Under the pieces are notes generated by a model. The model saw only the letters and a list, made by a program, of their open reading frames with translations. It searched no databases and was not told where the DNA came from. From an uncultured bacterium (GTDB lineage Bacteria; Patescibacteriota; Saccharimonadia; UBA4664), in the NCBI GenBank assembly GCA_963720265.1, contig CAVRET010000002.1, positions 520,704 to 584,703 of the forward strand: 64,000 nt of DNA, read 5' to 3'. Position numbers and translations under genes: made by a program. The stretch's first letter is position 1. Each line of letters begins with the position of its first letter. Of this stretch, positions 868 to 21,898 are shown piece after piece.

Positions 868-1188
868 ATGATCAAGACTGTTAACAAATCAACCTTCCAA
901 AATGATGTCTTAGGCGCCGACAAGCCGGTGCTCGTCGACCTCTGGGCCGAATGGTGCGCACCGTGCCGCGCTATGGAGCCGGCGATTGAAGCCGTGGCCA
1001 AGGAATTTGAAGGCCGGATTGAGGTTGCCAAACTCAACGTCGATGAAAACCCGGAAATTGCGCAGTCGCTTGGAGTCATGAGCATTCCCACCATGCTGCT
1101 ATTCAAGAATGGACAGCCGGTGAGCCGCATGGTGGGGCTCGCCACCAAAGACCGCCTTGCAGGCGCTGTAAATGCGGCTCTAGCGTGA
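868..1188 (+). CDS. trxA: thioredoxin
   Basis: Thioredoxin fold with [13 protein letters not shown] active site; note CAPC rather than CGPC. AAAAGGAG Shine-Dalgarno 5 nt upstream of ATG 868. The track ORF starts at 853. Confidence 0.85.
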
Positions 1189-2734: not shown

Positions 2735-2736
2735 CC

Positions 2737-4265: not shown

Positions 4266-4357
4266 AGGAATTATTTATCAGTTAAAATTAAGCTCATAGC
4301 TTGACAGGCGCCGATATAATACTTATGCTTAACTCAACATAAGCAAGAAACAAAAAA

Positions 4358-4810: not shown

Positions 4811-5058
4811 TGCTAAATACTCTCATCCAACCCCTCTTGTTCCCGCCGCATCTGGGATTTCCAGCCCTTACTGGTCTAATTGCCGGCCTGCTACTCATTC
4901 TCGTGTTCGAAGTTTGGATGCTCGTGGACGTACTCACCAATAAAAAAATACCGACACAGCACAAAGTCTGGTGGGTCATCTGCATGTTCCTTATTCACCC
5001 GGTTACGGCCATTGTTTACTTCTTTGTTCGCTCGGCTTACAAGAAATCCAAGCGGTGA
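4780..5058 (+). CDS. small membrane protein, PLDc_N (phospholipase-D-nuclease N-terminal)-like
   Basis: Two TM helices. The HKVWWVICMFLIHPVTAIVYFFV motif is typical of the PLDc_N small-protein family. Confidence 0.5.
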   Translation: MAGIFVRKLIMLNTLIQPLLFPPHLGFPALTGLIAGLLLILVFEVWMLVDVLTNKKIPTQHKVWWVICMFLIHPVTAIVYFFVRSAYKKSKR

Positions 5059-5789: not shown

Positions 5790-6520
5790 GCCCGCGCAAC
5801 ACCCTCTTTACTGCCCGACGCGTACTGCAGCAGCTCTCGCACGACCATCGCACGCTGGCCCTTATATTGCTCGTGCCAAGCGTGCTGCTCATTATTTTCA
5901 AATACACCTTTGACCACGAGTCCGCCGTCTTCGATCAATTCGCCCCCATGATTTTAGGCATCTTCCCGCTTGTGATAATGTTTATTGTCACTTCCATCGC
6001 CACCCTGCGCGAACGCACTATCGGCACGCTCGACCGCTTGCTCACCATGCCCATTGCCAAGCTCGACTTCTTGCTCGGCTATGCGCTGGCCTTTGCCGTC
6101 CTGGCCTTGGCGCAAGCCGGTCTGGCTAGCGCTGTGCTGCTCGGCCTGCTAGGCGTCACGGTAGCCGGCGGCACGGCTCCGGTGCTCATCTGCGCCATGC
6201 TGGCCGGGCTTCTTGGCATGTCGCTAGGATTGTTTATGAGCGCCTTTGCCAAAAGCGAATTCCAGGCTGTGCAATTTATGCCGGCCGTTATCCTTCCGCA
6301 GCTACTTACCTGCGGCCTGTTTGTAGCCCGCGATCAAATGGCGAAACCCTTGCAGTGGTTCGCCAATGTTATGCCGCTCACCTACAGCGTCGATGCTCTC
6401 AAGCAAGTTACAATGAGTACCACCTGGACGCACACACTCACCCGCGACCTCACGGTTGTGGCAGCCTACACCGTGGCTGCACTCGTGCTTGGTGCGCTCA
6501 CGATTCGCCGCCGGGATTAA
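5786..6520 (+). CDS. ABC-2 type transporter permease
   Basis: Six predicted TM segments. ATGA overlap with the ATPase gene. The track's 5582 start (Arg-rich) lies inside the ATPase gene and is rejected. Confidence 0.8.
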   Translation: MSPRNTLFTARRVLQQLSHDHRTLALILLVPSVLLIIFKYTFDHESAVFDQFAPMILGIFPLVIMFIVTSIATLRERTIGTLDRLLTMPIAKLDFLLGYALAFAVLALAQAGLASAVLLGLLGVTVAGGTAPVLICAMLAGLLGMSLGLFMSAFAKSEFQAVQFMPAVILPQLLTCGLFVARDQMAKPLQWFANVMPLTYSVDALKQVTMSTTWTHTLTRDLTVVAAYTVAALVLGALTIRRRD

Positions 6521-6565
6521 CAAAATTGACAGCATAAGCGCTTTTGGCCGATCATAATACATGTC

Positions 6566-9094: not shown

Positions 9095-9191
9095 CCCTCG
9101 CAGTTGCCGCCCATTATGTGTTATAAAATGCTGGTCGCACGTTAACAAGGTAATCGTTGTGATATACGAACAAAAAGCGTACACTCAGTGT

Positions 9192-9530
9192 ATGCCTTAC
9201 GCAAATAGGAAAAAAGCCCGAGCAGCAATCCGGAAGCACTATCTCGAGAATATTGATTATTACGTTCAAAAATCAGCAGCTAAGCGAGAGCGCCTAAAAC
9301 ATATTGTGCAAAGTATCAAGGCAGCATCACCGTGCGCAGATTGCCGGCACAACTTTCCGTATTATGTAATGGATTTTGATCATATTGGTGCCAAACTCAT
9401 GAATGTGAGTAAAATGATTAAAAAGGGCAGCATAAAACCCGTCCTCGAGGAAATTGCCAAGTGTGAGGTCGTGTGTGCAAACTGTCATCGAGTACGCACA
9501 TTTATGCGCCTGAGAACTTCACCCAAGTAG
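9192..9530 (+). CDS. HNH endonuclease family protein
   Basis: Cys-rich with CADCRH...CANCHR HNH/zinc-finger motif, ~112 aa. The track's longer 8832 ORF overlaps the GH59 gene and is rejected. Confidence 0.6.
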   Translation: MPYANRKKARAAIRKHYLENIDYYVQKSAAKRERLKHIVQSIKAASPCADCRHNFPYYVMDFDHIGAKLMNVSKMIKKGSIKPVLEEIAKCEVVCANCHRVRTFMRLRTSPK

Positions 9531-9538
9531 CAAGGCAC

Positions 9539-10067: not shown

Positions 10068-10144
10068 GGGCCATTAGCTCAGTTGGTTAGAGCAGCTGCC
10101 TCTTAAGCAGCGTGTCCTGGGTTCGAGTCCCAGATGGCCCTCCA
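10068..10144 (+). tRNA. tRNA-Lys (anticodon CTT)
   Basis: Acceptor GGGCCAT/ATGGCCC, anticodon loop CTCTTAA, T-loop TTCGAGT, encoded CCA. Its 3' end GATGGCCCTCCA is reiterated in every array repeat. Confidence 0.85.
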
Positions 10145-10190
10145 TAGCACTTATGCTTAAACGACCGAAAGGTCGTTTTTGATATGATTA
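10133..10190 (+). repeat. array repeat R0 (native tRNA-Lys 3' end plus 3' flank: conserved box, hairpin/T-run, TGaTATGAT)
   Basis: GATGGCCCTCCA-TAGCACTTATGCTTAAA-ACGACCGAAAGGTCGTTTTT-GATATGATTA. Confidence 0.8.
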
Positions 10191-10194
10191 ACCC

Positions 10195-10716
10195 ATGCCA
10201 CTCATATACGTTACTGGCATTGCTGGTTCAGGAAAGTCTGCGGCCCAAAAAGAACTCCAGAGACGAGGGTATGAGGCCCATGATGTCGACGAGCCGGGAA
10301 TTGGCGCAGCCTATAATCTACAAACTGGTGAGATTGTTAGTATCCCTGACGCAGCAGAGCGGTCGCCGGAATGGTTTGAGGCACACACCTGGAAGATGGA
10401 CCTTGAGGCTGTTAAGGAACTCAAAGCTCGGTCGCTTCATGGCGTTATATATTTATGTGGGCGAGCGGGCAATGAAAGCGAAGCCTGGCGATTATTTGAC
10501 AAGGTTGTCTACCTCGATATAAATGACGACACACTGCGTTGGCGTCTTGCCGTGAGGGAGGACAATGACTTTGGCAAGACAGAACATGAACTCCAGCAGA
10601 TTCTTAAAAGAAATAAGCGAGCCCGCGAGGAGTTTGAGCCACTTGGCGCTGTATTTATTGATGCTTCAGAGTCACTAGATAAAGTTGTTGGTGAGATTGT
10701 GAAACAATCACAGTAG
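10195..10716 (+). CDS. P-loop NTPase / small-molecule or nucleotide kinase-like protein (cassette 1)
   Basis: Walker A GIAGSGKSAAQ at the N-terminus, 173 aa. Stop TAG 10714-10716 lies inside repeat R1 (caGTAGcaa). Confidence 0.6.
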   Translation: MPLIYVTGIAGSGKSAAQKELQRRGYEAHDVDEPGIGAAYNLQTGEIVSIPDAAERSPEWFEAHTWKMDLEAVKELKARSLHGVIYLCGRAGNESEAWRLFDKVVYLDINDDTLRWRLAVREDNDFGKTEHELQQILKRNKRAREEFEPLGAVFIDASESLDKVVGEIVKQSQ

Positions 10717-10780
10717 CAACGGTCGTCACTACGGCCATCCATAGCACTTATGCTTAAAAAGAAACCGCAAGGTTTCTTTT
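10711..10780 (+). repeat. array repeat R1
   Basis: CAGTAGCAACGGTCGTCACTACGGCCATCCATAGCACTTATGCTTAAA + hairpin GAAACCGCAAGGTTTC + TTTT. Confidence 0.8.
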
Positions 10781-10990
10781 GTGTTAGCTAGAATAGTTCA
10801 AATGAGCAAGTTACTCTCAGGTCAAACACTCGCGACGATTACTGTCATTTCAGTGCTCCTTGTTCTCTGTGCATTTACTTGGCCCGCAATCAATAAAGCC
10901 AGGGCCACTTCCCATCTCAAACGGGTATTCAGCCAAGAGGCTAGCCCGCTAATCCCGGAAGTAACCGCCCTATGGAGGGGTGCATTCTAG
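10781..10990 (+). CDS. small membrane protein, possibly the N-terminal fragment of a frameshifted cassette gene (cassette 2)
   Basis: TM helix ATITVISVLLVLCAF. Its frame matches the TAG embedded in repeat R2, but the frame closes at 10990. Confidence 0.3.
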   Translation: MLARIVQMSKLLSGQTLATITVISVLLVLCAFTWPAINKARATSHLKRVFSQEASPLIPEVTALWRGAF

Positions 10991-11440
10991 CAATAGATTG
11001 GAATGTGACGAGGTAGCGCACACCCGTACCAAATCACAACTCTACTGCAAGGATACGCAGGCGTTCAAATACAACCCGGTACCCCTTCCCGATTCATCAC
11101 GGTCTGAAATAGTTACTGAAGCTACACGCCTCGACAAGGCACTCGTTCAAAACGGTTGGGCAGTGGATAGGGCCCAAGATACAACCAAGACCATCGCGGC
11201 CAGTATACCGACGGCTCCTGTTGCAGCCTTTCACGGGGGTGGTGTGCCATTCCACAAAAACATTGGGGATATAAGCTGCAATCTTGAGGTTAGGTTCAGC
11301 GGACCTACGGACGGAGTCTCACCCGGTGTGATAACCATAAATCGATCTCGTGCCAACAAAATATTGCGTATTTTATGCTTCATGCATCGAACTATACAAA
11401 TCACGGATTTGGTGGTCAAAGCCTCGTACTTTAGTTGCTA
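10980..11440 (+). pseudogene. hypothetical ORF continuing cassette 2 in another frame (possible frameshifted gene)
   Basis: ~150-codon open frame with no stop before R2. It reads straight through the repeat into the next gene, which produces the artifactual 381-aa track ORF. Confidence 0.25.
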
Positions 11441-11508
11441 CAGCCTGTACGATGGCCCTCCAAAGAGCTTATGCTTAAAAACGACCACCAGTTCGTTTTG
11501 TTATCATG
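11431..11508 (+). repeat. array repeat R2
   Basis: TTAGTTGCTACAGCCTGTACGATGGCCCTCCAAAGAGCTTATGCTTAAAA + hairpin ACGACCACCAGTTCGTTTT + GTTATCATGG. Confidence 0.8.
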
Positions 11509-11513
11509 GGAGC

Positions 11514-12125
11514 ATGAAGCCATATATACTTGGTTTGTGCGGCGGATCGGGTTCAGGAAAATCTACACTAGCATTTGGGTTGGCCGATATGCATCCAGGT
11601 GAAGTTACAGTATTCCACTTAGATGATTACTTCCGGCCCAGAGAAGAAGTTCTCACACTACATGGTTTCGTCAATTATGATGACCCCAGAGCCCTAAACA
11701 GTGACAAGATGATAGCTGACTTAGCCACGCTTATTAGCGGCAAGCCGGTTACTATTAACACAAAAAGCCCTAGACTGAATCCCGATTATGTCAAAACCAG
11801 GCAGCGGGTACCGGTCCGATTTGAGCCAAATAAGTTAATTGTGGTTGAAGGCTTCTTGACCTTGTATTTTGAGGAACTCAGAAAGCACTTTGATTATTCG
11901 ATTTACTTGGATGCCCCTTTTGATGACAGCACAGGCAGGCGCGCAGGCGAAAAGATAAACAATTACTCCCCTGAATATTTCAAGCTCGTGCTAAAGCCAA
12001 TGAGCGAAAGATACGTATATCCAAATAAAAAATATGCTAGTCGCGTTGTGAATATTGAAGGCAAATCAAAGCAATACGTTCTGAATGAAGTTGAAGAAAT
12101 CTTAAACAGCCAGAGTGTCTTTTAA
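11514..12125 (+). CDS. uridine kinase / phosphoribulokinase-family P-loop kinase (cassette 3)
   Basis: LGLCGGSGSGKSTLA P-loop, DDYF, and a IVVEGFLTLYF...YLDAP layout typical of Udk/PRK. ATG 11514 lies just after R2. Confidence 0.7.
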   Translation: MKPYILGLCGGSGSGKSTLAFGLADMHPGEVTVFHLDDYFRPREEVLTLHGFVNYDDPRALNSDKMIADLATLISGKPVTINTKSPRLNPDYVKTRQRVPVRFEPNKLIVVEGFLTLYFEELRKHFDYSIYLDAPFDDSTGRRAGEKINNYSPEYFKLVLKPMSERYVYPNKKYASRVVNIEGKSKQYVLNEVEEILNSQSVF

Positions 12126-12147
12126 CTCCTGAACTTCGGTTCTAACA

Positions 12148-12215
12148 GAATGAACGATGGCCCTCCATAGCACTTATAATTAAATAACAGCTCTACAGAG
12201 CTGTTATTTAATTAT
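12148..12215 (+). repeat. array repeat R3 (variant downstream half)
   Basis: ACGATGGCCCTCCATAGCACTTATAATTAAATAACAGCTCTACAGAGCTGTTATTTAATTATTGG. The hairpin is AAATAACAGCTCT/AGAGCTGTTATTT. Confidence 0.7.
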
Positions 12216-12238
12216 TGGAACTCTGATAAAATACTTGC

Positions 12239-13015
12239 ATGTATATTTCGGTCGACATCGGCGGCACCAACATTCGCATCGCTGCAACCTCGAGCTTAGA
12301 AATCCCTCGATTCGAGCCTGCACCGATCCGAGCAAAAAGTACGCGCAATTACGAGCGTGACCTCAGTTTCATCATCGACGGCGCCCGCAGACTGGCCGGC
12401 AGCAAGCCGATCAGAGCAGTCGGCATCGGCATGCCCGGCAGTTTTAACGATCAAAAAACCGAGCTCGTTTCAACCAGATATACCAAGCACTGGGTTGGCC
12501 ATCCGTTTGTGGCCACGCTAAGTAATGAGCTAAACTGCCCAGTCTTTATCGAAAATGATGGCGTCGCTGCCGGCCTTGGCGAAGCCTACTACGGCAACCA
12601 CCCGAAGCAATTTTGCTATGTAGTTTGGGGCACCGGCATCGGCGGCGCGTCAATAGTGACGAATGCGGACAAAACCCAAGTTGAGGTCGCAAAGTTCGAC
12701 CACAAAACGCACTTCAAAGCCTGGGAAGACGACTGCGGCGGTCACGAACTGGAGGAGCATTATCACAAAACGCCGGCTGACCTCAGTGCCGAACAATGGC
12801 AAAAGGTGATGGGGAAGTTCGAGACTCATCTCCACATGTTCATTGAGCTTACCGGCACGAGAGCAGTGGTCTTTGGCGGCGGCATCGCCATTAGGAAGCG
12901 GCAAGAGCTTGAGGCCATGGCAACAGCTCAAACAAGTGTAACCGCCTCAAATTTTAACGAGGACAGTGGGGTATATGGCGGCCTCGGTGTAATTCGGGCT
13001 AACGTTCACTTATGA
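12239..13015 (+). CDS. ROK-family sugar kinase / transcriptional-regulator-like (BadF/BadG/BcrA/BcrD ATPase fold) (cassette 4a)
   Basis: N-terminal MYISVDIGGTNIRIA phosphate-1 motif, GIGMPG, and GTGIGG motifs of ROK/glucokinase. Confidence 0.65.
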   Translation: MYISVDIGGTNIRIAATSSLEIPRFEPAPIRAKSTRNYERDLSFIIDGARRLAGSKPIRAVGIGMPGSFNDQKTELVSTRYTKHWVGHPFVATLSNELNCPVFIENDGVAAGLGEAYYGNHPKQFCYVVWGTGIGGASIVTNADKTQVEVAKFDHKTHFKAWEDDCGGHELEEHYHKTPADLSAEQWQKVMGKFETHLHMFIELTGTRAVVFGGGIAIRKRQELEAMATAQTSVTASNFNEDSGVYGGLGVIRANVHL

Positions 13016-13620
13016 TAAACACAATGACAAAATATGTACTCAACTCAGGTGGCATCAAACACCAGCCCGAACTTAAGAAGAAGTTTCACCAGGAGCTCAT
13101 TAAAGGCTTGAGCTCCAATCCAAAATTCGTACTCTGCAATTTCGCCCAAGGCCGCGAGTATTGGGAAGTGAAATTCCAGGGCTACTCTGACACGATCACG
13201 GAAGATATGCCGGCCAACATAAAGCCCACATATGAATTAGCGCTACCAACTACGTTTACTGAGCAATGCAAAAATACTGATGTCATCTACTTCCACGGCG
13301 GTGATGACCACTTACTGCAGTTTTGGCTGAAGCAATTTGACCTAACCGAGCTATTTAAAAACAAAGTTGTCGCCACTAACTCGGCGAGCTCCGACATGCT
13401 TGCCACCCACCATTGGACATGCGATTGGCGCGCTTGCGCCGACGGACTCGCCGTACTGCCGATCAAATTCATTCCCCATTATTTATCCAATTTTGGCGAT
13501 AGCGATCCGCGCGGCCCAATAGATTGGCAAAAGGCTTATGACGAGCTAGCAGCGTACGGCGATACGTCGTTACCGATTTACGCCCTCAAAGAAGGTGAGT
13601 TTATCGTCAAGGAGCAGTAA
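13012..13620 (+). CDS. peptidase S51 (PepE)-like / class-I glutamine amidotransferase-like protein (cassette 4b)
   Basis: VIYFHGGDDHLLQFW...VVATNSASSDMLA resembles the PepE IYxxGGN...GxSAG block. ATGA overlap with the ROK gene. Confidence 0.4.
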   Translation: MINTMTKYVLNSGGIKHQPELKKKFHQELIKGLSSNPKFVLCNFAQGREYWEVKFQGYSDTITEDMPANIKPTYELALPTTFTEQCKNTDVIYFHGGDDHLLQFWLKQFDLTELFKNKVVATNSASSDMLATHHWTCDWRACADGLAVLPIKFIPHYLSNFGDSDPRGPIDWQKAYDELAAYGDTSLPIYALKEGEFIVKEQ

Positions 13621-13676
13621 TGCCTATACTTCAGCCCCGATCCGCGCAATATGTAGGTCCTGAGATCGCCTTACCT

Positions 13677-13750
13677 CAGTAGCAATAGCTTCTACGATGG
13701 CCCTCCATAGCACTTATGCTTAAAACGACTAACAAAGTCGTTTTTGTTAC
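13677..13750 (+). repeat. array repeat R4 (consensus form)
   Basis: CAGTAGCAATAGCTTCTACGATGGCCCTCCATAGCACTTATGCTTAAAACGACTAACAAAGTCGTTTTTGTTAC. Confidence 0.85.
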
Positions 13751-13783
13751 AGTAATACTTAGAACAGTATTTTATATATAACT

Positions 13784-14233
13784 TTGAGGCATATTATGGC
13801 CCACGCCGAAAGCAGCGCAGACATCAATCGAACACCCCGGGCAGTGTATGATTTTCTGGTCGATGGGCTCAATAATTCAAAATGGCGCAGTGCAGTTGTT
13901 GAAATTAGCCTAAAACACGGGTCTGTCGGTCAAGTTGGGACGGAGTATCGCCAAGTTCTCAAGGGCCCAGGCAGTCGCACCATTCATGGCGATTACCACC
14001 TGACTGCCGCCGAATCTCCATCCCGGATCGCGTTTGAAGTGACTGCGGGACCCGCCAGGCCCAGGGGCGAGTACCGGCTTGTGGCCTCTGGGGATGGTAC
14101 GAAAGTCACCTTTATTCTCGACCTTAAAACCTCTGGCTTGATGAAACTTATGGAACCAATGATTCGCCAAACCATGCAGTCAGAAGTATCAAACTTAGCT
14201 CAACTCAAGGCCATCTTAGAGCTTAGTAAATAG
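13784..14233 (+). CDS. SRPBCC (START/Bet v1/polyketide-cyclase-like) family protein (cassette 5)
   Basis: ~145 aa. A RTPRAVYDFLVDGLNNSKWRSAV N-terminus is typical of the SRPBCC ligand-binding fold. Alternative start at 13796. Confidence 0.55.
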   Translation: MRHIMAHAESSADINRTPRAVYDFLVDGLNNSKWRSAVVEISLKHGSVGQVGTEYRQVLKGPGSRTIHGDYHLTAAESPSRIAFEVTAGPARPRGEYRLVASGDGTKVTFILDLKTSGLMKLMEPMIRQTMQSEVSNLAQLKAILELSK

Positions 14234-14306
14234 CTACTGGTGGTAAAAAAGCAGTATATAAACTTTACAATGCCATGACATGAACCGTCTGCAACTGTCG
14301 TATTAT

Positions 14307-14380
14307 GGTTGCAATAGCTTCCACGATGGCCCTCCATAGCACTGATGCTTAAACGACCGACAGGTCATTTTTGTTATGAT
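14307..14380 (+). repeat. array repeat R5
   Basis: GGTTGCAATAGCTTCCACGATGGCCCTCCATAGCACTGATGCTTAAACGACCGACAGGTCATTTTTGTTATGATTGCC. Confidence 0.8.
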
Positions 14381-14386
14381 TGCCAC

Positions 14387-14794
14387 ATGCACAAAGAAGA
14401 ATTCGTCGAAGCCGTTAAAAAACTTGGCCTCAAGCCGAATGATTATATTGTTGTTGGCTCCGGTGTGTTGGTGGCTCTGGGTATCCGTACGGCCACTGAC
14501 GTTGACCTCATAGTCAGTGAGCCGATTTTTCATCAATTTGAAGAAACAGGTGAGTGGCAGCGCAAAGATTTCGATGATGGGACGCATTATCTGCTTAAAG
14601 GTAAGTATGAAATTGGCCTCGACTGGGATGGCGAGAATACTACGCCGAACCTTAAAGATTTGAAGAAGTCGGAGGTTGTAATTGATAATATTCCGTTTGT
14701 TAGTCTCGAACGCCTCCGCCACTGGAAGGCTTGGAAGAATACGCCAAAGCACCTCGCAGACATTCGTTTGATAGACGACTACCTAAGCAGGTAA
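14387..14794 (+). CDS. minimal nucleotidyltransferase (Pol-beta superfamily) domain protein (cassette 6)
   Basis: Carries the two halves of the nucleotidyltransferase signature: hG[GS] (VVGSGVLVALGIR) and DxD (TATDVDLIV). 135 aa. Confidence 0.5.
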   Translation: MHKEEFVEAVKKLGLKPNDYIVVGSGVLVALGIRTATDVDLIVSEPIFHQFEETGEWQRKDFDDGTHYLLKGKYEIGLDWDGENTTPNLKDLKKSEVVIDNIPFVSLERLRHWKAWKNTPKHLADIRLIDDYLSR

Positions 14795-14828
14795 AGCTAG
14801 CTCAACAATCAAAGGCCTTTGAGCCAAG

Positions 14829-14910
14829 ACAGTAGTTGCTACAGCCTGTACGATGGCCCTCCAGCAATAATCATTAAATAACGGCTTCACAGAGCCGTTA
14901 TTTCGTTATT
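14829..14910 (+). repeat. array repeat R6 (variant downstream half)
   Basis: CAGTAGTTGCTACAGCCTGTACGATGGCCCTCCAGCAATAATCATTAAATAACGGCTTCACAGAGCCGTTATTTCGTTATTCG. Confidence 0.75.
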
Positions 14911-15199
14911 CGTTCTTAGCCCTAACGACATGTTAGAGCTAGCTAGGTTAATGGTTATTTGAAATTACATAAGATATATGTTATAAGTGTATGTAGGCTC
15001 AACTATCCAGAGGAGTGCATGGTGCCTATTCACTCGATTGTCTTGGCTGTGAATAATCCACCCCGAGACGAGGTGGAGAGTGTCGTCAAAATGATGGCGG
15101 GCGGTGGATGGAGATCTGTGTGGTGCGCAGACCGCGCATCACTTGACCAGTTGCTGCCTCCTCCGGAGCGCCGCATTGGCTATGTGGTCGTGGGACTGT

Positions 15200-15800
15200 C
15201 TGGCTCACTCAGTGAACCACCTCGGGCTAAAGCCCGAGGCTTCCTTGGGGCGGCATGCTGGGTTTAGCTTTCCATTGATTTTCGATATACCGTTTAATCG
15301 CCTGCTCCGTGTTACGACCAACACTCTCGGCGAAGTAGCCATCCGCCCAGAAGCTATCTCCCCATAACCATTCTTCCAGTTCAGGATGCGTCTGGCGGAT
15401 AGCCCGACTTGATCCGCCCTTGAAGATTTGTACTACCTGTGACACCGAGATGCTGGGAGGTAGTTCAATAAGCATATGAATGTGGTCGGGCATCACTGCC
15501 AGCCGCTCAATCCACCAGTCGTTCATCTCTGCGCACTGAAAGAATAATCGCTTCAGGTCAGTGGCGACTTCGCCCCGCAGGATGCTTTTGCGGTACTTGG
15601 GTATCCAGACGATATGAAATTGCAGGCGATATAGCGTATGCGCACCGGAATAATATTTTTTACCTGACTTCACATACCCAGCATGCCAGACTGTCGGCGC
15701 CAGCGCCAAGGTTGACCGCCATCCGACTTAGCCTTGGTGCTACCGCCTTAAGCGGACCCATTCATCCCTGGCCTAAAGGCCCAGGGGTCTCTGGGAGGTT
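15200..15800 (-). mobile_element. IS200/IS605-family insertion sequence (tnpA only)
   Basis: Y1 HUH transposase gene flanked by two subterminal hairpins with identical loops: CCTCGGGCTAAAGCCCGAGG (15219-15239) and CCCTGGCCTAAAGGCCCAGGG (15766-15786). Boundaries are approximate. Confidence 0.7.
15227..15709 (-). CDS. tnpA: IS200/IS605 family transposase TnpA (Y1 HUH)
   Basis: HIVWIPKYRK and the HUH motif PDHIHMLIE, with the catalytic Tyr region YIENQWK. ~150 aa. Confidence 0.85.
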   Translation of the reverse strand: MALAPTVWHAGYVKSGKKYYSGAHTLYRLQFHIVWIPKYRKSILRGEVATDLKRLFFQCAEMNDWWIERLAVMPDHIHMLIELPPSISVSQVVQIFKGGSSRAIRQTHPELEEWLWGDSFWADGYFAESVGRNTEQAIKRYIENQWKAKPSMPPQGSLGL

Positions 15801-16043
15801 ACTAGAGAGGACATCGCCCCTCATATTCCAAGCGACCTACGTGACGTTGCCGCGTTTGGCCCTGGAGCGAGAAGTTTCGGAATGGTCGTCTAGCTACGAT
15901 TTTTCCGCAGATGAGAGCACTATGGTCAAAGTAATGGCTAACGACCTCGATGCCCTCTCCCGCGAGGCTCTACTCAGCCGACTCCTGAGCCCCCGAATTC
16001 ACAAATGCGCAGACCGATCGGGGTCTGCGCTCTTTCTTTCACT

Positions 16044-16130
16044 GCAGTAGCAATAGCTTCTACGATGGCCCTCCAGAGCTCTTATGCTTAAAATGACTTC
16101 CGCAAGGGAGTCATTTTGGTATCATTATCA
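16044..16130 (+). repeat. array repeat R7
   Basis: TGCAGTAGCAATAGCTTCTACGATGGCCCTCCAGAGCTCTTATGCTTAAAATGACTTCCGCAAGGGAGTCATTTTGGTATCATTATC. Confidence 0.85.
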
Positions 16131-16132
16131 AG

Positions 16133-16675
16133 ATGAATGAATTCCAAACCACCCAGCTAAATGAAATTCTGGCCCGCGACCGAGAATTGGCAAAAAAGTT
16201 CGCTGAACTTAAGGAAGTTTTTGCTCAAAAATTTGGTGAAGATAGCGACATGTACGAAAGGGCGACCGCCATCTTCCTAGCTAACGCCCTCAACGGTGCT
16301 GCAGACTATGGAATTCCGCCCCTATATTCTGTGTATTGGAAACCATATCAAACCCAGAACCTCTTGCATCACATCACTACCAAGAAAAACGTCGACTCCA
16401 TTCGCAGGCATGGTCTGGAACCACGTGACCCTTCTCCTCGTCCATGGGCCGGCATGAAGGCGGTCTATATGGCCGAACCAAATGACCCGCTTTACGATAA
16501 ATCCGAACAAGCGGTCTTGGGTCATGTGCGTAAAAAAGGCGAAAACCCTGTGTTACTACAAATCAAAACCAATAACAAACTCTACAAGTCAATTGAACCA
16601 GGCCGAACCTTCCAAGTGATTTCGGTTGACCACATCGGACCTGAGGAAATCGTTGACTACCAAGGTCCAGGCTAA
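16133..16675 (+). CDS. hypothetical protein (cassette 8)
   Basis: 180-aa ORF starting right after R7. No recognisable domain. Confidence 0.45.
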   Translation: MNEFQTTQLNEILARDRELAKKFAELKEVFAQKFGEDSDMYERATAIFLANALNGAADYGIPPLYSVYWKPYQTQNLLHHITTKKNVDSIRRHGLEPRDPSPRPWAGMKAVYMAEPNDPLYDKSEQAVLGHVRKKGENPVLLQIKTNNKLYKSIEPGRTFQVISVDHIGPEEIVDYQGPG

Positions 16676-16708
16676 TATCGTTACGTACGGCTCTTCAGCC
16701 TGACGCAG

Positions 16709-16792
16709 ACTAGTTGCGATAGCGTATACGATGGCCCTCCGTAGTACTTATGCTTTAAGACTCCATCGGGAGTCTTTTTGCTTTGCTATGAT
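16709..16792 (+). repeat. array repeat R8
   Basis: CTAGTTGCGATAGCGTATACGATGGCCCTCCGTAGTACTTATGCTTTAAGACTCCATCGGGAGTCTTTTTGCTTTGCTATGATG. Confidence 0.8.
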
Positions 16793-16794
16793 GA

Positions 16795-17448
16795 ATGCAT
16801 ATGAGCAGTCTCTCCGAATATGAGGCAAAACCCTGGCCCTATACGGTAATTGTGGGCATCATTATTTACGTTGCAATTGATATTCTCTTGGCTTTTCTAA
16901 GGCCCGATTACAGTAGCCTGCATAACGCTGAAAGCGATTATGGCAGAGGTCCCTACTCTTGGGTTATGGACATTAATTTTTTGCTACGCTGTGTGTTATC
17001 GCTAGCTTTAGTAAAAGCTATCTGGACCACCTTCCCTAAAGAAAAGCCCATTAAGAAAGCTTCTTATTGGCTCATTGCATGGGCGATTTCTTCAGGGCTG
17101 CTGGCATTCTTCGCTGACAATCCCTTCGGCTATCCCAAGCTTAAGAGTGGTTCAATACACCTACTGTTGGCTTTTGTAGTATTTATCAGTGCTTTAGTAG
17201 GAATGGTTTTGCTAACTAGACGCTTTATGATTGTCCAGGCTTGGCGCGATACCGCTGGTTTACTGGTAGGCATAACGATACTCGCAATAGTATCCCTAGT
17301 ACTAATGGGTTACGTAGGGATTAGGCCACACACATTAGGCGGCTTATATGAAAGATTTTTTCTAGGCTCGGTACTTCTATGGGAAGGGGTTGTTGCTATA
17401 AAAATTATTTCAGGTAACAATACGTCCTCTTCAGCTAGTCGCAAATAG
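16795..17448 (+). CDS. polytopic membrane protein, unknown function (cassette 9)
   Basis: ~6 predicted TM helices, 217 aa. Confidence 0.45.
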   Translation: MHMSSLSEYEAKPWPYTVIVGIIIYVAIDILLAFLRPDYSSLHNAESDYGRGPYSWVMDINFLLRCVLSLALVKAIWTTFPKEKPIKKASYWLIAWAISSGLLAFFADNPFGYPKLKSGSIHLLLAFVVFISALVGMVLLTRRFMIVQAWRDTAGLLVGITILAIVSLVLMGYVGIRPHTLGGLYERFFLGSVLLWEGVVAIKIISGNNTSSSASRK

Positions 17449-17478
17449 CAAAAAACAATCCAATTACTACCTTGTATT

Positions 17479-17512
17479 ACAGTGCGATAGCGTGCACGAT
17501 GGCACTCACACT
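17479..17512 (+). repeat. array repeat R9 (upstream half only, degenerate)
   Basis: CAGTGCGATAGCGTGCACGATGGCACTCACAC. It lacks the conserved box and hairpin. Confidence 0.5.
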
Positions 17513-17868
17513 TACCCCGCAAAAATAGTATGAAGCACCGTCATAAGTTTGGATCTTTGGCTTGGTGATATCTCGGCAATACGCTCCCTAAGCCTGGCTT
17601 TATCAACGACTCTTAGCTGGTCACAGGCGGCGCTAGACTTCCGTCCCAAAATATTCACGTCCACCCGAAAAGGCCAGCTGGTTCTGGTCGTTGTCATTGG
17701 AATGATAAGTACCGTCTTCAAGAAATCGTTCATCTCGTCCGGAGATATTACGAGGCCGGGTCTAATTTTCTGAAGCTCTGAACCTCGTGTGGGATCCGGG
17801 TCAAACCAATAAACCGAGAACCGCCTAATGTTTGTCACGTGCGAGCCATTCCTCGTAGGTCGGACCAT
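17512..17868 (-). CDS. mazF: type II toxin, MazF/PemK/Kid-family mRNA interferase
   Basis: VYWFDPDPTRGSELQKIRPGLVISPDEMN...IIPMTTT...CDQLRVVDKARL parallels MazF/Kid blocks. Start is uncertain (candidates 17835-17895). Confidence 0.65.
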   Translation of the reverse strand: MVRPTRNGSHVTNIRRFSVYWFDPDPTRGSELQKIRPGLVISPDEMNDFLKTVLIIPMTTTRTSWPFRVDVNILGRKSSAACDQLRVVDKARLRERIAEISPSQRSKLMTVLHTIFAG

Positions 17869-18142
17869 CCCAAGGCATACTGTCGAGCCCATCACTGGCT
17901 GCAGCGTCCCACGATGTCAAGTCGGTATCATCGGCCAAGGCATGGGGGTTAGACGCTAAAACTGCTTGAATTTGCTGCCTCCACCCTTGTCTTGGATTAG
18001 CCGCAGAACGAATCACTATCTCGCCTGGTCGAGCCTCCAATTCAACCGCGTCTTCCAGATTGCTCAAAGCAAGCAACGCCTTTGGCAGCCGCACTGCTTT
18101 ACTATTACCGGACGTAGTTAATCTCGTAGATATCGTTGACAT
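17825..18142 (-). CDS. mazE: type II antitoxin (AbrB/MazE-type swapped-hairpin domain)
   Basis: TTSGNSKAVRLPKALL matches the SpoVT/AbrB motif. Sits upstream of and overlaps the toxin gene. Confidence 0.6.
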   Translation of the reverse strand: MSTISTRLTTSGNSKAVRLPKALLALSNLEDAVELEARPGEIVIRSAANPRQGWRQQIQAVLASNPHALADDTDLTSWDAAASDGLDSMPWDGPTYEEWLARDKH

Positions 18143-18228
18143 ATGTACATTGTACGTACCTCACTCGATTCGTTCAATAGGGATAATGTCCGAAAGGCGC
18201 AACTTTAGGGTCGGGCTTTAGCCGGATC

Positions 18229-18312
18229 TCAGTGGCAATAGACTCCACGATGGTCCTCCATAACACTCATGCTTAAACTTCTCTACATCGAGGAGTTTTT
18301 TGTTGCTATGCT
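18229..18312 (+). repeat. array repeat R10
   Basis: CAGTGGCAATAGACTCCACGATGGTCCTCCATAACACTCATGCTTAAACTTCTCTACATCGAGGAGTTTTTTGTTGCTATGCTTTGACTATGG. Confidence 0.8.
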
Positions 18313-18897
18313 TTGACTATGGAAACCTTTAAAGACCTTCCGGTACTGCTAGCCGCTACACAATCTGACTGGAGAGCCTGGCTTGAGGAAAACCATATGC
18401 AGCTTCGGGGTATATGGCTCAAGCACGCGAAAAAGTCGTCTGGAAAGCCGTCAGTTAGCTATACGGAGGCACTGGAAGAGGCGTTGTGTTACGGCTGGAT
18501 AGATAGTCAAAAGCAAGCTTACGATGAGGACTATTTTCTGCAAAAGTTTACGCCTAGGGGCCCTAAAAGCGTGTGGTCTAAAATTAACGTTGCCAAAGCT
18601 GAAGCGCTCATTAAGTCAAGAAAAATGCAGCCAGCCGGATTGGAGACAATCAGTGCGGCCAAGCAGGATGGTAGATGGGACGCCGCCTACGACTCCTCAA
18701 GTTCGAATAAAATTCCGGAAGATTTTCAGGCGGCTTTAAATGAAAACCCTAAAGCCAAGCAGTTTTTTGAGACGCTCAATAAAGCGAACATTTACGCTTT
18801 TTCCTGGCGGATACAAACCGCTAAAAAGCCGGAAACCCGGAAAGCAAAAATCGACCAGTTTATCGAGATGCTAAATCGAGGCCAGAAACTTCATTAG
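18313..18897 (+). CDS. YdeI/OmpD-associated family (DUF1801-like) protein (cassette 11)
   Basis: 194 aa. WIDSQKQAYDEDYFLQKFTPRGPKSVWSKIN...KAKQFFETLNKANIYAFSWRIQTAKKPETR is typical of this family. Stop TAG 18895-18897 is inside repeat R11 (caTTAGcaa). Confidence 0.55.
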   Translation: MTMETFKDLPVLLAATQSDWRAWLEENHMQLRGIWLKHAKKSSGKPSVSYTEALEEALCYGWIDSQKQAYDEDYFLQKFTPRGPKSVWSKINVAKAEALIKSRKMQPAGLETISAAKQDGRWDAAYDSSSSNKIPEDFQAALNENPKAKQFFETLNKANIYAFSWRIQTAKKPETRKAKIDQFIEMLNRGQKLH

Positions 18898-18990
18898 CAA
18901 GCCCAATTTGAGTTGCGACAGCGCCTACTGTGGCCCTCCGGCAATTATCTTCAAACTAATAGCTTCCTGAAGCCATTAGTTTATTATCCA
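18893..18990 (+). repeat. array repeat R11 (variant downstream half)
   Basis: CATTAGCAAGCCCAATTTGAGTTGCGACAGCGCCTACTGTGGCCCTCCGGCAATTATCTTCAAACTAATAGCTTCCTGAAGCCATTAGTTTATTATCC. Confidence 0.7.
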
Positions 18991-19149
18991 AGCACGCCAC
19001 CCTAGTAGACGTGCAACTATCCTCGCCATATGATTATCTACATGAGCAATCGGCCTGGATTAGTAAAGCAATTCAATGAAGCTTTTTCAAAAGGCGACCG
19101 ACATCTAGCAGAGGAACTGTTGGCCCCTAACTTCACGTTCTCGGCGCCG

Positions 19150-19750
19150 CCCGATCCCTTAACCCCGCGAGGAACCCCGGAGCTTGCTCCGGGGAGGGAT
19201 AGCGCCGGCGAGCACCTGTCCGCCTCTGGTGGACACAGCAGTCTTTCATTAGCACAATGGTGGTATGGACGTTCAAATCGGTGCCCACTGTCGGTATCAG
19301 ATTCGGTACCATTTGGTATGGGGTGTCAAACTTCGACGCAAGGTACTGCTAGCCAACCGCAGCCAATACTTAAAGCGGGTGCTTGTCGAGATAGCCCAGG
19401 CTTACGACTGGGAGCTGGAAGCTGTTGGCACCGATGACGACCATGTCCATGTATTTATAGGTGCTCATCCAAAAATCGCGCCAGAGAAGTTGGTACAGAT
19501 CTTAAAAAGCAAGAGCGCACGGGCCTTGTTTGTCCAGTTTCCCGAAGTCAAACAGTTCTTGTGGGGCGGTGCGATGTGGAGTGTCGGCTATTACATTAGG
19601 ACCGTCTCTGACGGTCCGTTGGAAGGAGTTATAAAGACGTATGTTGAGCAACAAGGTAAGCACCGACCCACTCAGGCCAAATCGTACCAACTGAAGCTGG
19701 TGCCCTAAGTGACAACCACGGAGCTTGCTCCGTGGGGGTGTCTTTTTTTG
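19150..19750 (+). mobile_element. second, unrelated IS200/IS605-family insertion sequence (tnpA only)
   Basis: Subterminal hairpins CCCCGGAGCTTGCTCCGGGG (19175-19194) and CCACGGAGCTTGCTCCGTGG (19717-19736) flank a Y1 transposase gene. Boundaries are approximate. Confidence 0.7.
19265..19708 (+). CDS. tnpA: IS200/IS605 family transposase TnpA (Y1 HUH)
   Basis: YHLVWGVKLRRKVL and the HUH motif DDHVHVFIG, with a C-terminal Tyr region. Only distantly similar to the first tnpA. Confidence 0.85.
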   Translation: MDVQIGAHCRYQIRYHLVWGVKLRRKVLLANRSQYLKRVLVEIAQAYDWELEAVGTDDDHVHVFIGAHPKIAPEKLVQILKSKSARALFVQFPEVKQFLWGGAMWSVGYYIRTVSDGPLEGVIKTYVEQQGKHRPTQAKSYQLKLVP

Positions 19751-20052
19751 GACCGTGACGGGTTCTTTCAGAAATGCTGGCCTCAGGGACATAACCTTAA
19801 AAATATTGAGTATGTGCGCGTAACAGAAAATGCTGATGAAGTTATCATCACGCATGAATACGCTAAGCCAGACGGCGCCAAGGGGCGCAATACCGACGTA
19901 ATTACATTTGATGGAGATAAAATCATCCGTTTGGAAGTCTATTTTGGTTGGGACACAAAAGACTGGTAGTTGTTTTCAGAATTCCTGCCAAACAATCCTC
20001 GGAAATTTTCCCCTAAGATACGTCAGAGAACGTAAGACGCAAGGGGAACTAC

Positions 20053-20805
20053 ATGGCTAAAGAAAGCATCAACGACAAAGTAGTTATTATTACTGGGGCA
20101 ACTTCGGGTATCGGAGAGGCTACTGCTAGGCTGCTGGCGACCGAAGGTGCCATCACGGTCCTGGCGGGCAGACGAGCGGAGCGGCTGGACAGACTCCGTG
20201 GCGAAATCGAAAAAAGCGGCGGGCAGGCTATGTCCGTAGAAACGGATGTCACCAAATTCGACGACACTCGGCGGCTTATCGACACCGTGCACAAAAAATA
20301 CGGCCGCATCGACATCTTATTCAACAACGCCGGCGTTATGCTGCTCGGCCCGGTGCTAGACGCCGATGTCACCGATTGGCAGCGGATGATCGATACCAAC
20401 CTATATGGGCTCATCTGGTGCACGCACGCAGTCTTGCCGCACATGGTCAAGCAAGGGAGCGGCCACATTGTTCAAACGTCGTCGGTTGCCGGCCGCACCG
20501 CCAACTCAGGCAGCGCCGTCTACAACCTCACCAAGTGGGGGGTTAATGCCTTCACTGAGGCTCTGCGTCGGGAACTAGTGGAATCCAAAATCAGGACGAC
20601 AATCATCGAGCCCGGTCTGGTAGCCACAGAGCTGCGTGAGCACATTACGAACCGGGAGGCCAAAGACCGTGTCAACGAGTGGGCCGAATCGGTGCGTCAG
20701 CTGCAGGCGGAAGATATTGCAAATGCCGTCCTCTACGCCGTCACACAGCCCAGTCATGTAGACGTCAATGAGATCCTAATTCGCCCAACCGACCAACAGC
20801 GGTAA
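20053..20805 (+). CDS. SDR-family NAD(P)-dependent oxidoreductase
   Basis: TGATSGIGEA Rossmann motif, NNAG, and a Y..K catalytic region typical of short-chain dehydrogenases. Confidence 0.8.
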   Translation: MAKESINDKVVIITGATSGIGEATARLLATEGAITVLAGRRAERLDRLRGEIEKSGGQAMSVETDVTKFDDTRRLIDTVHKKYGRIDILFNNAGVMLLGPVLDADVTDWQRMIDTNLYGLIWCTHAVLPHMVKQGSGHIVQTSSVAGRTANSGSAVYNLTKWGVNAFTEALRRELVESKIRTTIIEPGLVATELREHITNREAKDRVNEWAESVRQLQAEDIANAVLYAVTQPSHVDVNEILIRPTDQQR

Positions 20806-20837
20806 ACCGATGAGAGAGCTCAGCCGCGCCGGTGATG

Positions 20838-21224
20838 CTATTGTCCGGCCGTCGGCTCCCACAGCTCGACCTTGTTGCCTTCCGGGTCAATCACCCAGCC
20901 AAACTTCCCATATTCTGATTCATCGACCTTGTCCAATACATTGCAGCCCTCTCCCTTAAGAGCCTCCAGCAGCGCCCGGAGGTCGGCTACCCGGTAGTTC
21001 ACCATAAAGGTAGCCGTGCTTGGCGCGAAAGAGTCATCATCGGCAGACGTGATGGACCAAGCCGTTGTGCCGCCAACAGGTTTGCCAGCTCCATCTGTCC
21101 AGTCAAAGGCGGCGCCTCCCCAGTCTTGCACGTCGATGCCAAGGTGCCGCTTGTACCAGGCCTGCATTGCCTTTGGGTCTTTGGCTTTAAAGAAGATGCC
21201 ACCAATACCAGTAACGCGGTTCAT
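20838..21224 (-). CDS. VOC-family (glyoxalase/bleomycin-resistance fold) protein
   Basis: 128 aa with the VOC beta-alpha-beta-beta-beta arrangement (GIGGIFFKAKDPKAMQAWYKRHLG...). Confidence 0.6.
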   Translation of the reverse strand: MNRVTGIGGIFFKAKDPKAMQAWYKRHLGIDVQDWGGAAFDWTDGAGKPVGGTTAWSITSADDDSFAPSTATFMVNYRVADLRALLEALKGEGCNVLDKVDESEYGKFGWVIDPEGNKVELWEPTAGQ

Positions 21225-21245
21225 ACTAAAACTATATCAAAAAGT

Positions 21246-21292
21246 ATGCGCGATCGCCCTCCAGGCATTTTGTTGTTTTCTGCTATGATGCG
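21246..21292 (+). repeat. array repeat R12 (degenerate, probable right end of array)
   Basis: GCGCGATCGCCCTCCAGGCATTTTGTTGTTTTCTGCTATGATGCG retains CCCTCCA, a T-run, and CTATGAT. Confidence 0.45.
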
Positions 21293-21295
21293 CTC

Positions 21296-21898
21296 ATGAA
21301 AAACATGGAGCGCTTCGTCAATTTCAGCGACGGGGTCATGGCTATTGCCGTAACGTTGCTGGTGCTGCCTCTGGCCGAACGCGCGTCCAACGCCCGTATC
21401 AACTCGTACCACGATTTCCAAGCCGCATTTGCGCATCAACTCGCCATTTTCTTCCTCAGCTTTGTTGTCATTTGCCGCTACTGGGAGGTCCACCACAATC
21501 TATTTAGTTCCCTCAAAACTTTTAGCGCCCTCCTATTTTGGCTCAACGCCGCCTGGCTGGCCTCCATAGTACTCGTGCCGTTTACCTCCGAAATCATCGG
21601 CAACGCGAGCGGTACAAATGCATTTACGACTGCCGTTTACATTGGCTCACTACTCATCACAAGCTACATCGGCGTGGCGATCCAATGGGTGATCGTGCAA
21701 TCGCCGCAACTGCGAAAACCCGGTGTTCTGGCGCCGTCGCGTTTGCTTTACGGAGCTACCAGCGCCGTGGCCATGACCGCGGCCTTCGTGTTGAGCGTTC
21801 TCGTGCCTAGCATCGGGCCCTGGTCGCTTTTGCTGCTCATTCCGGCCGGTTACGTGGCTAAATATTGGCCGGCACAGCTCAAGCACAACCTCTCATAA
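21296..21898 (+). CDS. DUF1211 / TMEM175-like membrane protein (putative K+ channel family)
   Basis: N-terminal signature RFVNFSDGVMAIAVTLLVLPL (compare the FSDGVFAIAITLL motif) and 6 TM helices. Confidence 0.65.
   Translation: MKNMERFVNFSDGVMAIAVTLLVLPLAERASNARINSYHDFQAAFAHQLAIFFLSFVVICRYWEVHHNLFSSLKTFSALLFWLNAAWLASIVLVPFTSEIIGNASGTNAFTTAVYIGSLLITSYIGVAIQWVIVQSPQLRKPGVLAPSRLLYGATSAVAMTAAFVLSVLVPSIGPWSLLLLIPAGYVAKYWPAQLKHNLS

Follow-up and report, generated by a model that had tools for sequence, protein, structure and literature searches.

A tRNA-Lys-anchored array of small gene cassettes in Saccharibacteria: a candidate integron-like platform

Organization of the tRNA-Lys locus

The DNA analyzed in this study, hereafter the window, is a 64-kb stretch of contig CAVRET010000002.1 from an uncultured bacterium of the Saccharimonadia, and the subject of this report is a tRNA-Lys gene within it together with the array of gene cassettes that follows the tRNA. 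The tRNA-Lys(CTT) gene (positions 10068..10144, + strand), identified by ARAGORN and scoring 69.6 bits against the Rfam tRNA model, encodes its own CCA end. On its 3' side, 11 internal, co-oriented copies of a short element, the last of which ends at 18940, delimit 12 low-GC cassettes. This organization agreed with the first-pass annotation of the same DNA, which had described an array of at least 12 cassettes anchored at this tRNA. As argued below, the array is, on balance, probably an integron-like platform, in which the 3' end of the tRNA would take the role of attI or attB.

The last 12 nt of the tRNA, GATGGCCCTCCA, were found with at most one mismatch at 10 places in the window, all of them on the + strand between 10133 and 21263, while shuffled windows contained 0.28 such matches on average and none of 100 shuffles reached 10. 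Element copies, each consisting of an upstream arm and this core, were located by repeat finding and register-anchored alignment. The core was shown to be exact in six internal copies (core starts 11451, 12156, 13696, 14325, 14852, and 16064), to carry one mismatch in two (16730 and 18249), and to be degenerate in the remaining three (10730 TACGGCCATCCA, 17498 GATGGCACTCAC, and 18929 TGTGGCCCTCCG). A profile built from 107 copies matched the window only between 10133 and 18940 in an nhmmer search, and gave no match in the other 54 kb outside the array. In seven internal copies, as well as in the tRNA itself, the core is continued by a TAGCACTTATGCTTAAA-like box.

All 11 copies lie on the + strand. 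E1 (10707..10741; ...AGTAGCAACGGTCGTCAC-TACGGCCATCCA), which closes cassette 1, is degenerate, falls under the nhmmer threshold, and was recognized by repeat finding and alignment. It is followed by E2 (11428..11462; E=3e-11), E3 (12133..12167; exact core and degenerate arm, supported by core matching, alignment, and nhmmer), E4 (13673..13707; E=2e-9), E5 (14302..14336; E=7e-12), E6 (14829..14863; E=1e-9), and E7 (16041..16075; E=2e-9). Among these, E2 and E6 agree in all of their last 31 nt (11432-11462 in E2), as do E4 and E7 (13677-13707 in E4). Toward the distal side, E8 (16707..16741; E=3e-9) has a core ending in CCG, E9 (17475..17509; E=1e-4) combines a good arm with the degenerate core GATGGCACTCAC and has no box behind it, E10 (18226..18260; E=1e-5) has the core GATGGTCCTCCA, and E11 (18906..18940; E=0.012), with the degenerate core TGTGGCCCTCCG, is the last detectable element.

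The array had been taken to extend to 21295 and to include 12 to 13 copies. Its end was relocated to approximately 19972, where homology with the related locus L070 stops at the stop codon of a SnoaL_2 gene (names of the type L0xx and L1xx denote related loci from metagenome-assembled genomes, MAGs, or metagenomes). While 11 internal copies stood, the claimed 13th copy, GATCGCCCTCCA at 21252..21263 (+ strand), was not accepted, since it consists of a one-mismatch core with neither an upstream arm nor a profile match. It lies 33 nt upstream of a TMEM175-family gene, and the SDR gene (20053-20805) and glyoxalase gene (20838-21224, - strand) between the array end and this site have near-core GC. 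The site is probably a chance match or a relic of an old, ameliorated cassette boundary.

The GC content was approximately 0.47 across 10-19 kb versus approximately 0.58 in the flanks, which bears out the impression by eye of a low-GC array, and individual cassettes ranged from 0.43 to 0.53. No age gradient was evident along the array of the window in either GC or element quality. As noted previously, element copies stand at gene boundaries and the genes are mostly on the tRNA strand, the exceptions being mazEF and one IS200 transposase gene.

The cassettes, whose genes were assigned with Pfam, run on the + strand unless stated otherwise. Cassette 1 (10145..10741) comprises a 5' box, a terminator-like hairpin, and TGATATGAT, followed by an AAA_18 kinase-like gene (10195-10716). 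Cassette 2 (10742..11462) has no intact long open reading frame (ORF): a 69-aa ORF at 10781-10990 had no Pfam match, intact ORFs on the array strand do not exceed 69 aa, and one long frame continues through the next element, so that this cassette probably represents a decayed gene. Cassette 3 (11463..12167) carries a gene of the PRK/uridine-kinase family (11514-12125), and cassette 4 (12168..13707) carries two genes, one of the ROK family (12239-13015) and one with weak similarity to Peptidase_S51 (13012-13620). A Polyketide_cyc2/SRPBCC gene (13784-14233) was found in cassette 5 (13708..14336), and a gene of unassigned function (~14387-14794) in cassette 6 (14337..14863), the 5' module of which was shown by repeat finding to be 87% identical to that of cassette 1. 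Cassette 7 (14864..16075) contains a Y1 transposase gene of the IS200 family (15227-15709, - strand; Y1_Tnp, E=7e-41). Cassettes 8 (16076..16741) and 9 (16742..17509) carry a gene for a 180-aa protein without assigned function (16133-16675) and a DUF998 membrane protein gene (16795-17448), respectively. Cassette 10 (17510..18260, - strand) encodes a MazF/PemK toxin (17512-17895) and a MazE-like antitoxin (17825-18142), and cassette 11 (18261..18940) a YdeI/OmdA-family protein (18313-18897). The terminal cassette 12 (18941..19972) has no 3' element; its SnoaL_2 gene (19030-19160 and 19744-19969), which has an intact orthologue in L070, is split by an IS200-family insertion (19161..19743, + strand).

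This insertion contains a tnpA gene (19265-19708; Y1_Tnp, E=7e-33) and terminal hairpins (19173-19197 and 19714-19738, recognized as hairpin repeats), and constitutes a clean 583-bp insertion relative to L070. The first-pass annotation had overlooked both HUH transposase genes of the array, at 15227-15709 (-) and 19265-19708 (+). Their assignment to IS200/IS605, a family with a Y1 HUH transposase, subterminal hairpins, and insertion with no target duplication, is supported by the two Y1_Tnp matches and, for the second copy, by its hairpins and clean insertion. Since no IS200 gene was found in 167 related loci carrying elements or the tRNA, and such genes thus occur in the window only, both copies are incidental insertion sequences. 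For the same reason, IS200 was rejected as the mobilizing enzyme.

Sequence and distribution of the element

Alignment of 107 copies defined the conserved unit as 35 nt, A-TTYRGTTGCNAYAGCNTNYAC-GATGGCCCTCCA, beyond the CCA of which the sequence is not generally conserved. The unit is thus composed of a 23-nt arm that does not derive from the tRNA, and of the core, only the final 7-12 nt of which match the local tRNA-Lys. The repeat had originally been described as a copy of the tRNA end and its native flank, which it is not: arm and core are kept across Saccharibacteria even where the local tRNA ends differ, and only the 7-12-nt suffix is shared with the tRNA. Hardly any variation was seen in the 35 nt between genomes with ~66% nucleotide identity in their tRNA-Lys and core genes.

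Several other origins or functions of the element were assessed. No Watson-Crick covariation was detected among the copies, and folding of the element as single-stranded DNA gave z scores of -1.2 to +1.2 for both strands, with no stable or consistent fold and no hairpin or palindrome; an attC-like or RNA structure was thus rejected. An Rfam search of 9.4-22 kb at E<=1 returned tRNAs only, with no family for the element. The element was located 0-190 nt 3' of ORF stop codons, and a coding function was rejected because the stop codons of the upstream ORFs scatter from -186 to +4. Derivation of the arm from the T-arm of the tRNA was likewise rejected, because the conserved arm positions mismatch the T-arm.

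A scan of 185,579 species genomes for arm plus core identified 87 stretches, of which 80 were listed. Among the matches listed, 58 of 80 were labelled Saccharibacteria, Saccharimonadia, or Saccharimonadales, and the rest were mostly unclassified or Patescibacteria. One perfect 35-nt element was observed in Ktedonospora formicarum SOSP1-1, an isolate of the Chloroflexota (NZ_BNJF01000002.1; L062, 3244-3532). It is located directly 3' of a truncated AadA_C ORF (aminoglycoside adenylyltransferase, C-terminal part) and adjoins an IS240/IS6-type DDE fragment in a low-GC patch, which looks like a horizontally acquired fragment of a Saccharibacteria cassette.

Polarity, occupancy, and cassette content in related loci

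The loci available for comparison were MAG and metagenome fragments of up to 15 kb, and comprised two sets: the first was ascertained by the motif itself, while the second was chosen in a metagenome scan by the 3' half of tRNA-Lys only. The surroundings of the window are related to those of a Saccharimonadales MAG locus, L075, with which positions 224-3657 are collinear (~66% nucleotide and 59-69% amino-acid identity), and the order tRNA-Arg(ccg), tRNA-Arg(tcg), tRNA-Lys(ctt) is common to both. The window was accordingly assigned to a high-GC Saccharibacteria (TM7) genome. A search of JGI metagenomes with the PAS protein encoded next to the tRNA, used as a probe for strain-level synteny, found no relatives.

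In the motif-chosen set, 40 sequences contained a tRNA-Lys (CTT or TTT; 39 loci and the window), and all 85 elements in them were located downstream on the tRNA strand. The tRNA-chosen set gave the same polarity, with 20 elements in 206 kb of downstream sequence, whereas 154 kb of upstream sequence and the opposite strand contained no element, so that the two sets together yielded 105 of 105 elements downstream of tRNA-Lys on the same strand. In these loci, the scatter of a generic REP/MITE-like repeat, named earlier as a refuting outcome, was thus not observed. Furthermore, among the 43 tRNA-chosen loci that extended 1.5 kb or more past the tRNA, 11 carried an element, and the empty tRNA-Lys sites had a plain terminator directly after the CCA, with no TAGCACTTATGCTTAAA/TTATGCTTAAA box. 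Occupancy of the site is therefore polymorphic and empty sites exist. Two metagenome loci, L107 and L148, each contain two convergent tRNA-Lys genes that share one bidirectional terminator-like hairpin with no cassettes in between, i.e., empty sites facing each other.

The cassettes of these arrays ranged from ~0.4 to 1.5 kb and usually contained one ORF. The median length of 143 inter-element segments was 763 bp, and the longest ORF was on the array strand in 108 of 140 segments. Clustering of 238 cassette ORFs resulted in 204 clusters, including 177 singletons, and recurrent families comprised toxin-antitoxin pairs (Phd/YoeB, RelB/YafQ, PIN, and ParE), NUDIX proteins, and DUF5674. Content of the locus varied between genomes rather than being fixed, as is best illustrated by the YdeI cassette, whose homologues occupy other array positions in L048, L087, L106, L136, and L158. 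Elements flank this cassette in the window, L048, L087, and L106 (72-79% identity in blastn), and it stands first after the tRNA in L136 and L158, behind three others in L106, and eleventh in the window, as predicted by insertion between the tRNA and older cassettes.

Arm identity was 0.673 within arrays and 0.659 between arrays (p=0.13). The elements are hence not homogenized within arrays, which implies that each cassette brings its own site. In 26 loci, the array GC was approximately 0.42 (0.35-0.48) while the GC of the host flanks spanned 0.33-0.57, indicating a shared foreign pool with partial amelioration.

Probable position of the crossover

The 3' end of tRNA-Lys varies by genome (…GATGGCCCTCCA, …CTGGCCCTCCA, …TGGGCCCTCCA, …CAGCCCCTCCA, and …CTGACCCTCCA), and the elements in these genomes keep ACGATGGCCCTCCA. 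In 40 loci, the suffix common to tRNA and element measured 7-12 nt and always included CCCTCCA, which is the sole block common to every tRNA-Lys and every element (10138..10144 in the window, + strand). An exchange to the left of the bar in …GG|CCCTCCA would have corrupted the acceptor stem, yet differing tRNA ends persist beside canonical elements, so that the exchange is placed on the right of it. On the other side, the pairs L004/L074 (97.7% identity over 517 nt) and L012/L067 (91.8%) lose all similarity immediately after the CCA. From the shared suffix and the divergence after CCA, we infer that the identity block hosting the crossover is the 7 bp CCCTCCA, which matches a tyrosine-recombinase overlap region in size. 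Two other placements, a serine-recombinase site with the arm as its centre and a crossover on the left side of the core, were rejected because tRNAs ending in …CTGGCCC or …CAGCCCC keep their own ends beside canonical elements, and a crossover in the N6 spacer behind the CCA was disfavoured because partners diverge from position +1. Rare core variants provided too few informative cases for mapping of the crossover.

To the right of the crossover, a box TTATGCTTAAA (at least 9 of 11 matches) was found at an offset of 6-7 nt after the CCA in 40 of 163 sites, versus approximately one at any other offset. The TAGCACTTATGCTTAAA box following the copies had been considered the native trailer of the tRNA. 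Because the box is absent from empty sites, it is instead a feature of the 5' end of the next cassette. The box TTATGCTTAAA may act as a weak right half-site. It presumably resembles the XerD arm of dif, TTATGTTAAAT, a likeness that we take as a lead only.

Putative expression signals of the cassettes

The typical 5' module of a cassette is variable, and often consists of N6-TTATGCTTAAA, an intrinsic-terminator-like hairpin, and an extended -10 motif TGnTAnnnT near the start codon. While a generic promoter and terminator scan revealed no enrichment, the site-anchored count that replaced it found terminator-like hairpins after 70 of 174 sites (21 in shuffles) and TGnTAnnnT within 110 nt after 96 of 174 sites (45 in shuffles). 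These counts suggest that cassettes carry their own putative promoters and terminators.

In the window, start codons are situated ~6-9 nt after TGnTAnnnT with no Shine-Dalgarno sequence at 10180-10197, 11496-11516, 14369-14389, 16104-16135, and 21280-21298. This spacing suggests that the mRNAs of the cassette genes, and also that of the core gene at 21296, may be leaderless.

From the box through the terminator-like hairpin and TGnTATgAT to the start codon, the 5' modules were 81-87% identical between cassettes with unrelated ORFs, as observed for 10128-10198 versus 14320-14390 (87%) and for 12169-12216 versus 14863-14910. Alternative 5' modules recur in other genomes; for instance, CCA-ATTTGGTTGTATATTACTACAGTAACTTCTTAG heads many different cassettes.

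Proposed mechanism and alternative explanations

Considering the polarity, the variable occupancy, the exact breakpoints, and the shared cassette pool, the locus is probably, although with some reservation, an integron-like platform at which a recombinase with its gene elsewhere in the genome has inserted circular cassettes at the tRNA-Lys 3' end. In the proposed mechanism, recombination would take place between the CCCTCCA of a cassette circle and the same 7 nt at the end of tRNA-Lys, which comprise the acceptor end, the discriminator, and CCA. The tRNA would thereby be regenerated, with the incoming 5' module supplying its terminator, and older cassettes would be displaced away from the tRNA, such that arrays would grow from the tRNA. 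Exchange could take place at internal sites too. The enzyme is proposed to be unlinked to the array because none was found in the window or in related loci; it would most simply be of the tyrosine type, either a host Xer-like or a dedicated one, because an identity block of 7 bp would suit the overlap region of such enzymes. Such a platform may still be active at present.

Several observations weigh against this interpretation. In agreement with the first-pass annotation, a Pfam search of more than 50 ORFs detected no tyrosine or serine recombinase in the window, but only the two Y1_Tnp genes. Likewise, none was found in the 167 related loci (87+80; ~1 Mb) by phmmer with XerD, lambda Int, and gamma-delta resolvase as queries, a search that had no positive control, and XerD and lambda Int gave no match in the window either. 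With the same queries, no recombinase-like ORF was detected in 143 cassettes, whose largest ORFs were inspected, and the loci read yielded no Xer gene. In addition, a classical two-half-site tyrosine or serine recombinase site is expected to be conserved on both sides, whereas the present site is strongly conserved on its left side only, the right box TTATGCTTAAA being at the fixed offset in only 25-40% of sites. Two pattern scans of IMG/VR and searches of PLSDB and INPHARED did not find the site in these phage and plasmid sets. Moreover, terminal cassettes such as the SnoaL_2 cassette of the window and the YdeI cassette of L136 end with no 3' element, a feature not foreseen by the simple model, and all comparisons were made between fairly distant MAGs.

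A dedicated recombinase would be dispensable if cassettes were exchanged through natural competence and RecA-dependent homologous recombination between elements, which would then be kept as useful 3'-end, terminator, or promoter adaptors. Saccharibacteria are naturally competent, the elements are direct repeats of 35-50 bp, i.e., near the minimum length for RecA, identical pairs occur in the window (E2/E6 and E4/E7), and unrelated cassettes share 5' adaptor modules such as the 87% identical pair described above. We nevertheless consider this explanation unlikely, because the identity at the tRNA junction amounts to only 7-12 bp, which is too short for RecA-type recombination and thus counts in favour of site-specific insertion. 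In addition, the elements are not homogenized within arrays and the breakpoints fall at one exact position, and the near-invariance of 35 nt across genomes of ~66% identity argues for recognition by a protein.

The array could alternatively represent a graveyard of larger, integrase-bearing elements that were serially integrated at tRNA-Lys, as in tycheposons or in accretion of integrative and conjugative elements (ICEs) and cis-mobilizable elements (CIMEs), with only cargo and att remnants left. Such a history, which seems to us decidedly unlikely, would account for the regenerated tRNA 3' end repeated between units and for the outward movement of older units upon insertion beside the tRNA, and tandem tycheposons separated by partial tRNAs have been described (10.1101/2020.12.28.424599). 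It conflicts, however, with the uniformity of the 143 units, which have a median length of 763 bp and usually one intact ORF, with the lack of any detected integrase or fragment thereof in ~1 Mb of loci, and with the tRNA-derived part of only 7-12 nt. Random decay would also not yield the same intact 35-nt non-tRNA arm right after each stop codon.

An RNA-level signal in the 3' untranslated region that serves processing, stability, or CCA-related enzymes by mimicking the tRNA-Lys 3' end and that was spread by local duplication appears very improbable. Although the element follows stop codons by 0-190 nt on the coding strand, upstream of terminator-like hairpins, and ends in the 3' strand of the tRNA acceptor plus CCA, this acceptor strand has no partner, and the copies lack base-pair covariation, a significant fold (z -1.2 to +1.2), and an Rfam family. 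The element is also confined to a single locus per tRNA-Lys and has no copy in the remaining 54 kb of the window, and cassette turnover and exact breakpoints are facts at the DNA level.

Finally, a generic intergenic repeat, either a repetitive extragenic palindromic sequence (REP) or bacterial interspersed mosaic element (BIME) or a miniature inverted-repeat transposable element (MITE), possibly mobilized by the two IS200-type HUH transposases within the array, is refuted by the distribution of these short intergenic repeats, which occur in one orientation at one locus, always downstream of tRNA-Lys, and have no palindrome, while the IS200 genes are absent from the 167 related loci and one IS simply sits within a cassette gene of which L070 has an unbroken version.

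Relation to known systems

The arrays share with sedentary chromosomal integrons the mostly single-gene, co-oriented cassettes of ~0.5-1 kb with a 3' recombination site, the single fixed platform site, and the huge gene diversity with many unassigned functions and frequent toxin-antitoxin cassettes. The short core common to platform and cassette, 7 bp here, parallels the GTTRRRY box, and platform-proximal insertion, which would be another common trait, is supported by the comparison of L136 and L158 with L106 and the window. In contrast, no intI gene is present beside the array or in the 64-kb window, the platform is the 3' end of a tRNA, and the sites keep their sequence but show no fold, the reverse of attC sites, which form hairpins (R''/L''-L'/R') and vary in sequence. 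Integron cassettes rely on Pc, while the present cassettes appear to have their own terminator and promoter. The earlier description as an integron-style platform with a tRNA-derived site is thus partly supported, by polarity, variable content, and empty sites; the cassette sites themselves are not attC-like and match the tRNA over only 7-12 nt. Given that it has no intI, no attC-like structure, and probably its own cassette promoters, the array is not an integron.

Like the tRNA islands represented by the tycheposons of Prochlorococcus (10.1101/2020.12.28.424599), ICE/CIME accretion, and Islander-type islands, the locus has an intact tRNA and direct repeats of its 3' part. In both cases the tRNA is restored upon integration, tandem units have partial tRNA copies between them, older units are displaced outward by arrivals beside the tRNA, and a conserved hot spot has variable content. 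These islands, however, measure several kb and bring a tyrosine recombinase and mobility modules of their own, whereas the present units are integrase-less single genes; the repeats of islands are longer fragments of the tRNA alone, whereas those described here are mainly a non-tRNA arm with 7-12 nt of tRNA. The array is not a classical tRNA island, because its units encode no integrase.

Modules mobilized by Xer, namely the integrative mobile elements exploiting Xer (IMEX) at dif and the pdif modules of Acinetobacter plasmids, are similarly small, include toxin-antitoxin modules, have short sites, and depend on a recombinase encoded elsewhere. The arrangement of core-CCA, N6, and TTATGCTTAAA in 25-40% of sites recalls the 11-6-11 geometry of dif. 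Nonetheless, the left arm does not resemble that of dif, the sites are repeated in direct orientation beside a tRNA rather than at dif and do not alternate in orientation, and the crossover would lie in CCCTCCA rather than in the N6 spacer. With REP/BIME sequences and their associated RAYT transposases, and with MITEs, the elements have in common that they are short, intergenic, and near a transposase of the HUH-type family; unlike these, they are non-palindromic, undispersed, and restricted to a single orientation and a single locus, and the IS200 copies are ordinary insertion sequences.

A full-text literature search found no description of such arrays in Saccharibacteria or Patescibacteria, consistent with the first-pass annotation, which was aware of no described cassette system of this architecture. 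Site-specific cassette capture is a familiar principle; the parts found here are new. More tentatively, Saccharibacteria and perhaps other members of the candidate phyla radiation (CPR) may have an independently evolved equivalent of the integron capture system with no homologous part, consisting of an unlinked recombinase, a 35-nt double-stranded site, exchange in the last 7 bp of tRNA-Lys, and a class-wide pool of self-expressing cassettes. This pool would leak into other phyla, as judged from the AadA_C fragment with an intact element in the Ktedonospora isolate.

Saccharibacteria are episymbionts with genomes of ~1 Mb and few recognized mobile elements. If the proposal is correct, the tRNA-Lys cassette platform would be a main route of accessory gene flux in these bacteria, with a cargo that includes toxin-antitoxin pairs, small-molecule kinases, NUDIX enzymes, and an aminoglycoside-adenylyltransferase-like gene. 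It would represent a second, convergent answer to the problem solved by integrons, implying that neither a folded attC nor a linked integrase is required for cassette arrays. The locus also points to a new pair of recombinase and att site, and the motif could serve as a simple marker for cassettes in metagenomes. In addition, the 35-nt site and tRNA-Lys could provide a natural safe-harbour locus for engineering of cultivable Saccharibacteria.

Other observations in the window

The spacer between tRNA-Arg(ccg) and tRNA-Arg(tcg) measures 5.3 kb in the window (4266-9538), versus ~0.02-1.7 kb in L030, L070, L071, and L075. The 3' ends of the tRNA-Arg genes are not repeated in this region. The spacer holds an ABC-2 transporter gene pair, a gene for a protein with GH59 and ricin-lectin domains (6566-9094), and a CxxC…CxxCH ORF (~9150-9530) that is HNH-like by eye with no Pfam match. 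Homologues of the ABC pair are located just downstream of an element in L012.

Two further regions of the window, 35851-39310 and 54848-57855, encode functions unusual for CPR bacteria, namely the cytochrome oxidase subunits COX2 and COX1, and a two-gene ATP-citrate-lyase-like pair (Citrate_bind, Ligase_CoA, and Citrate_synt).

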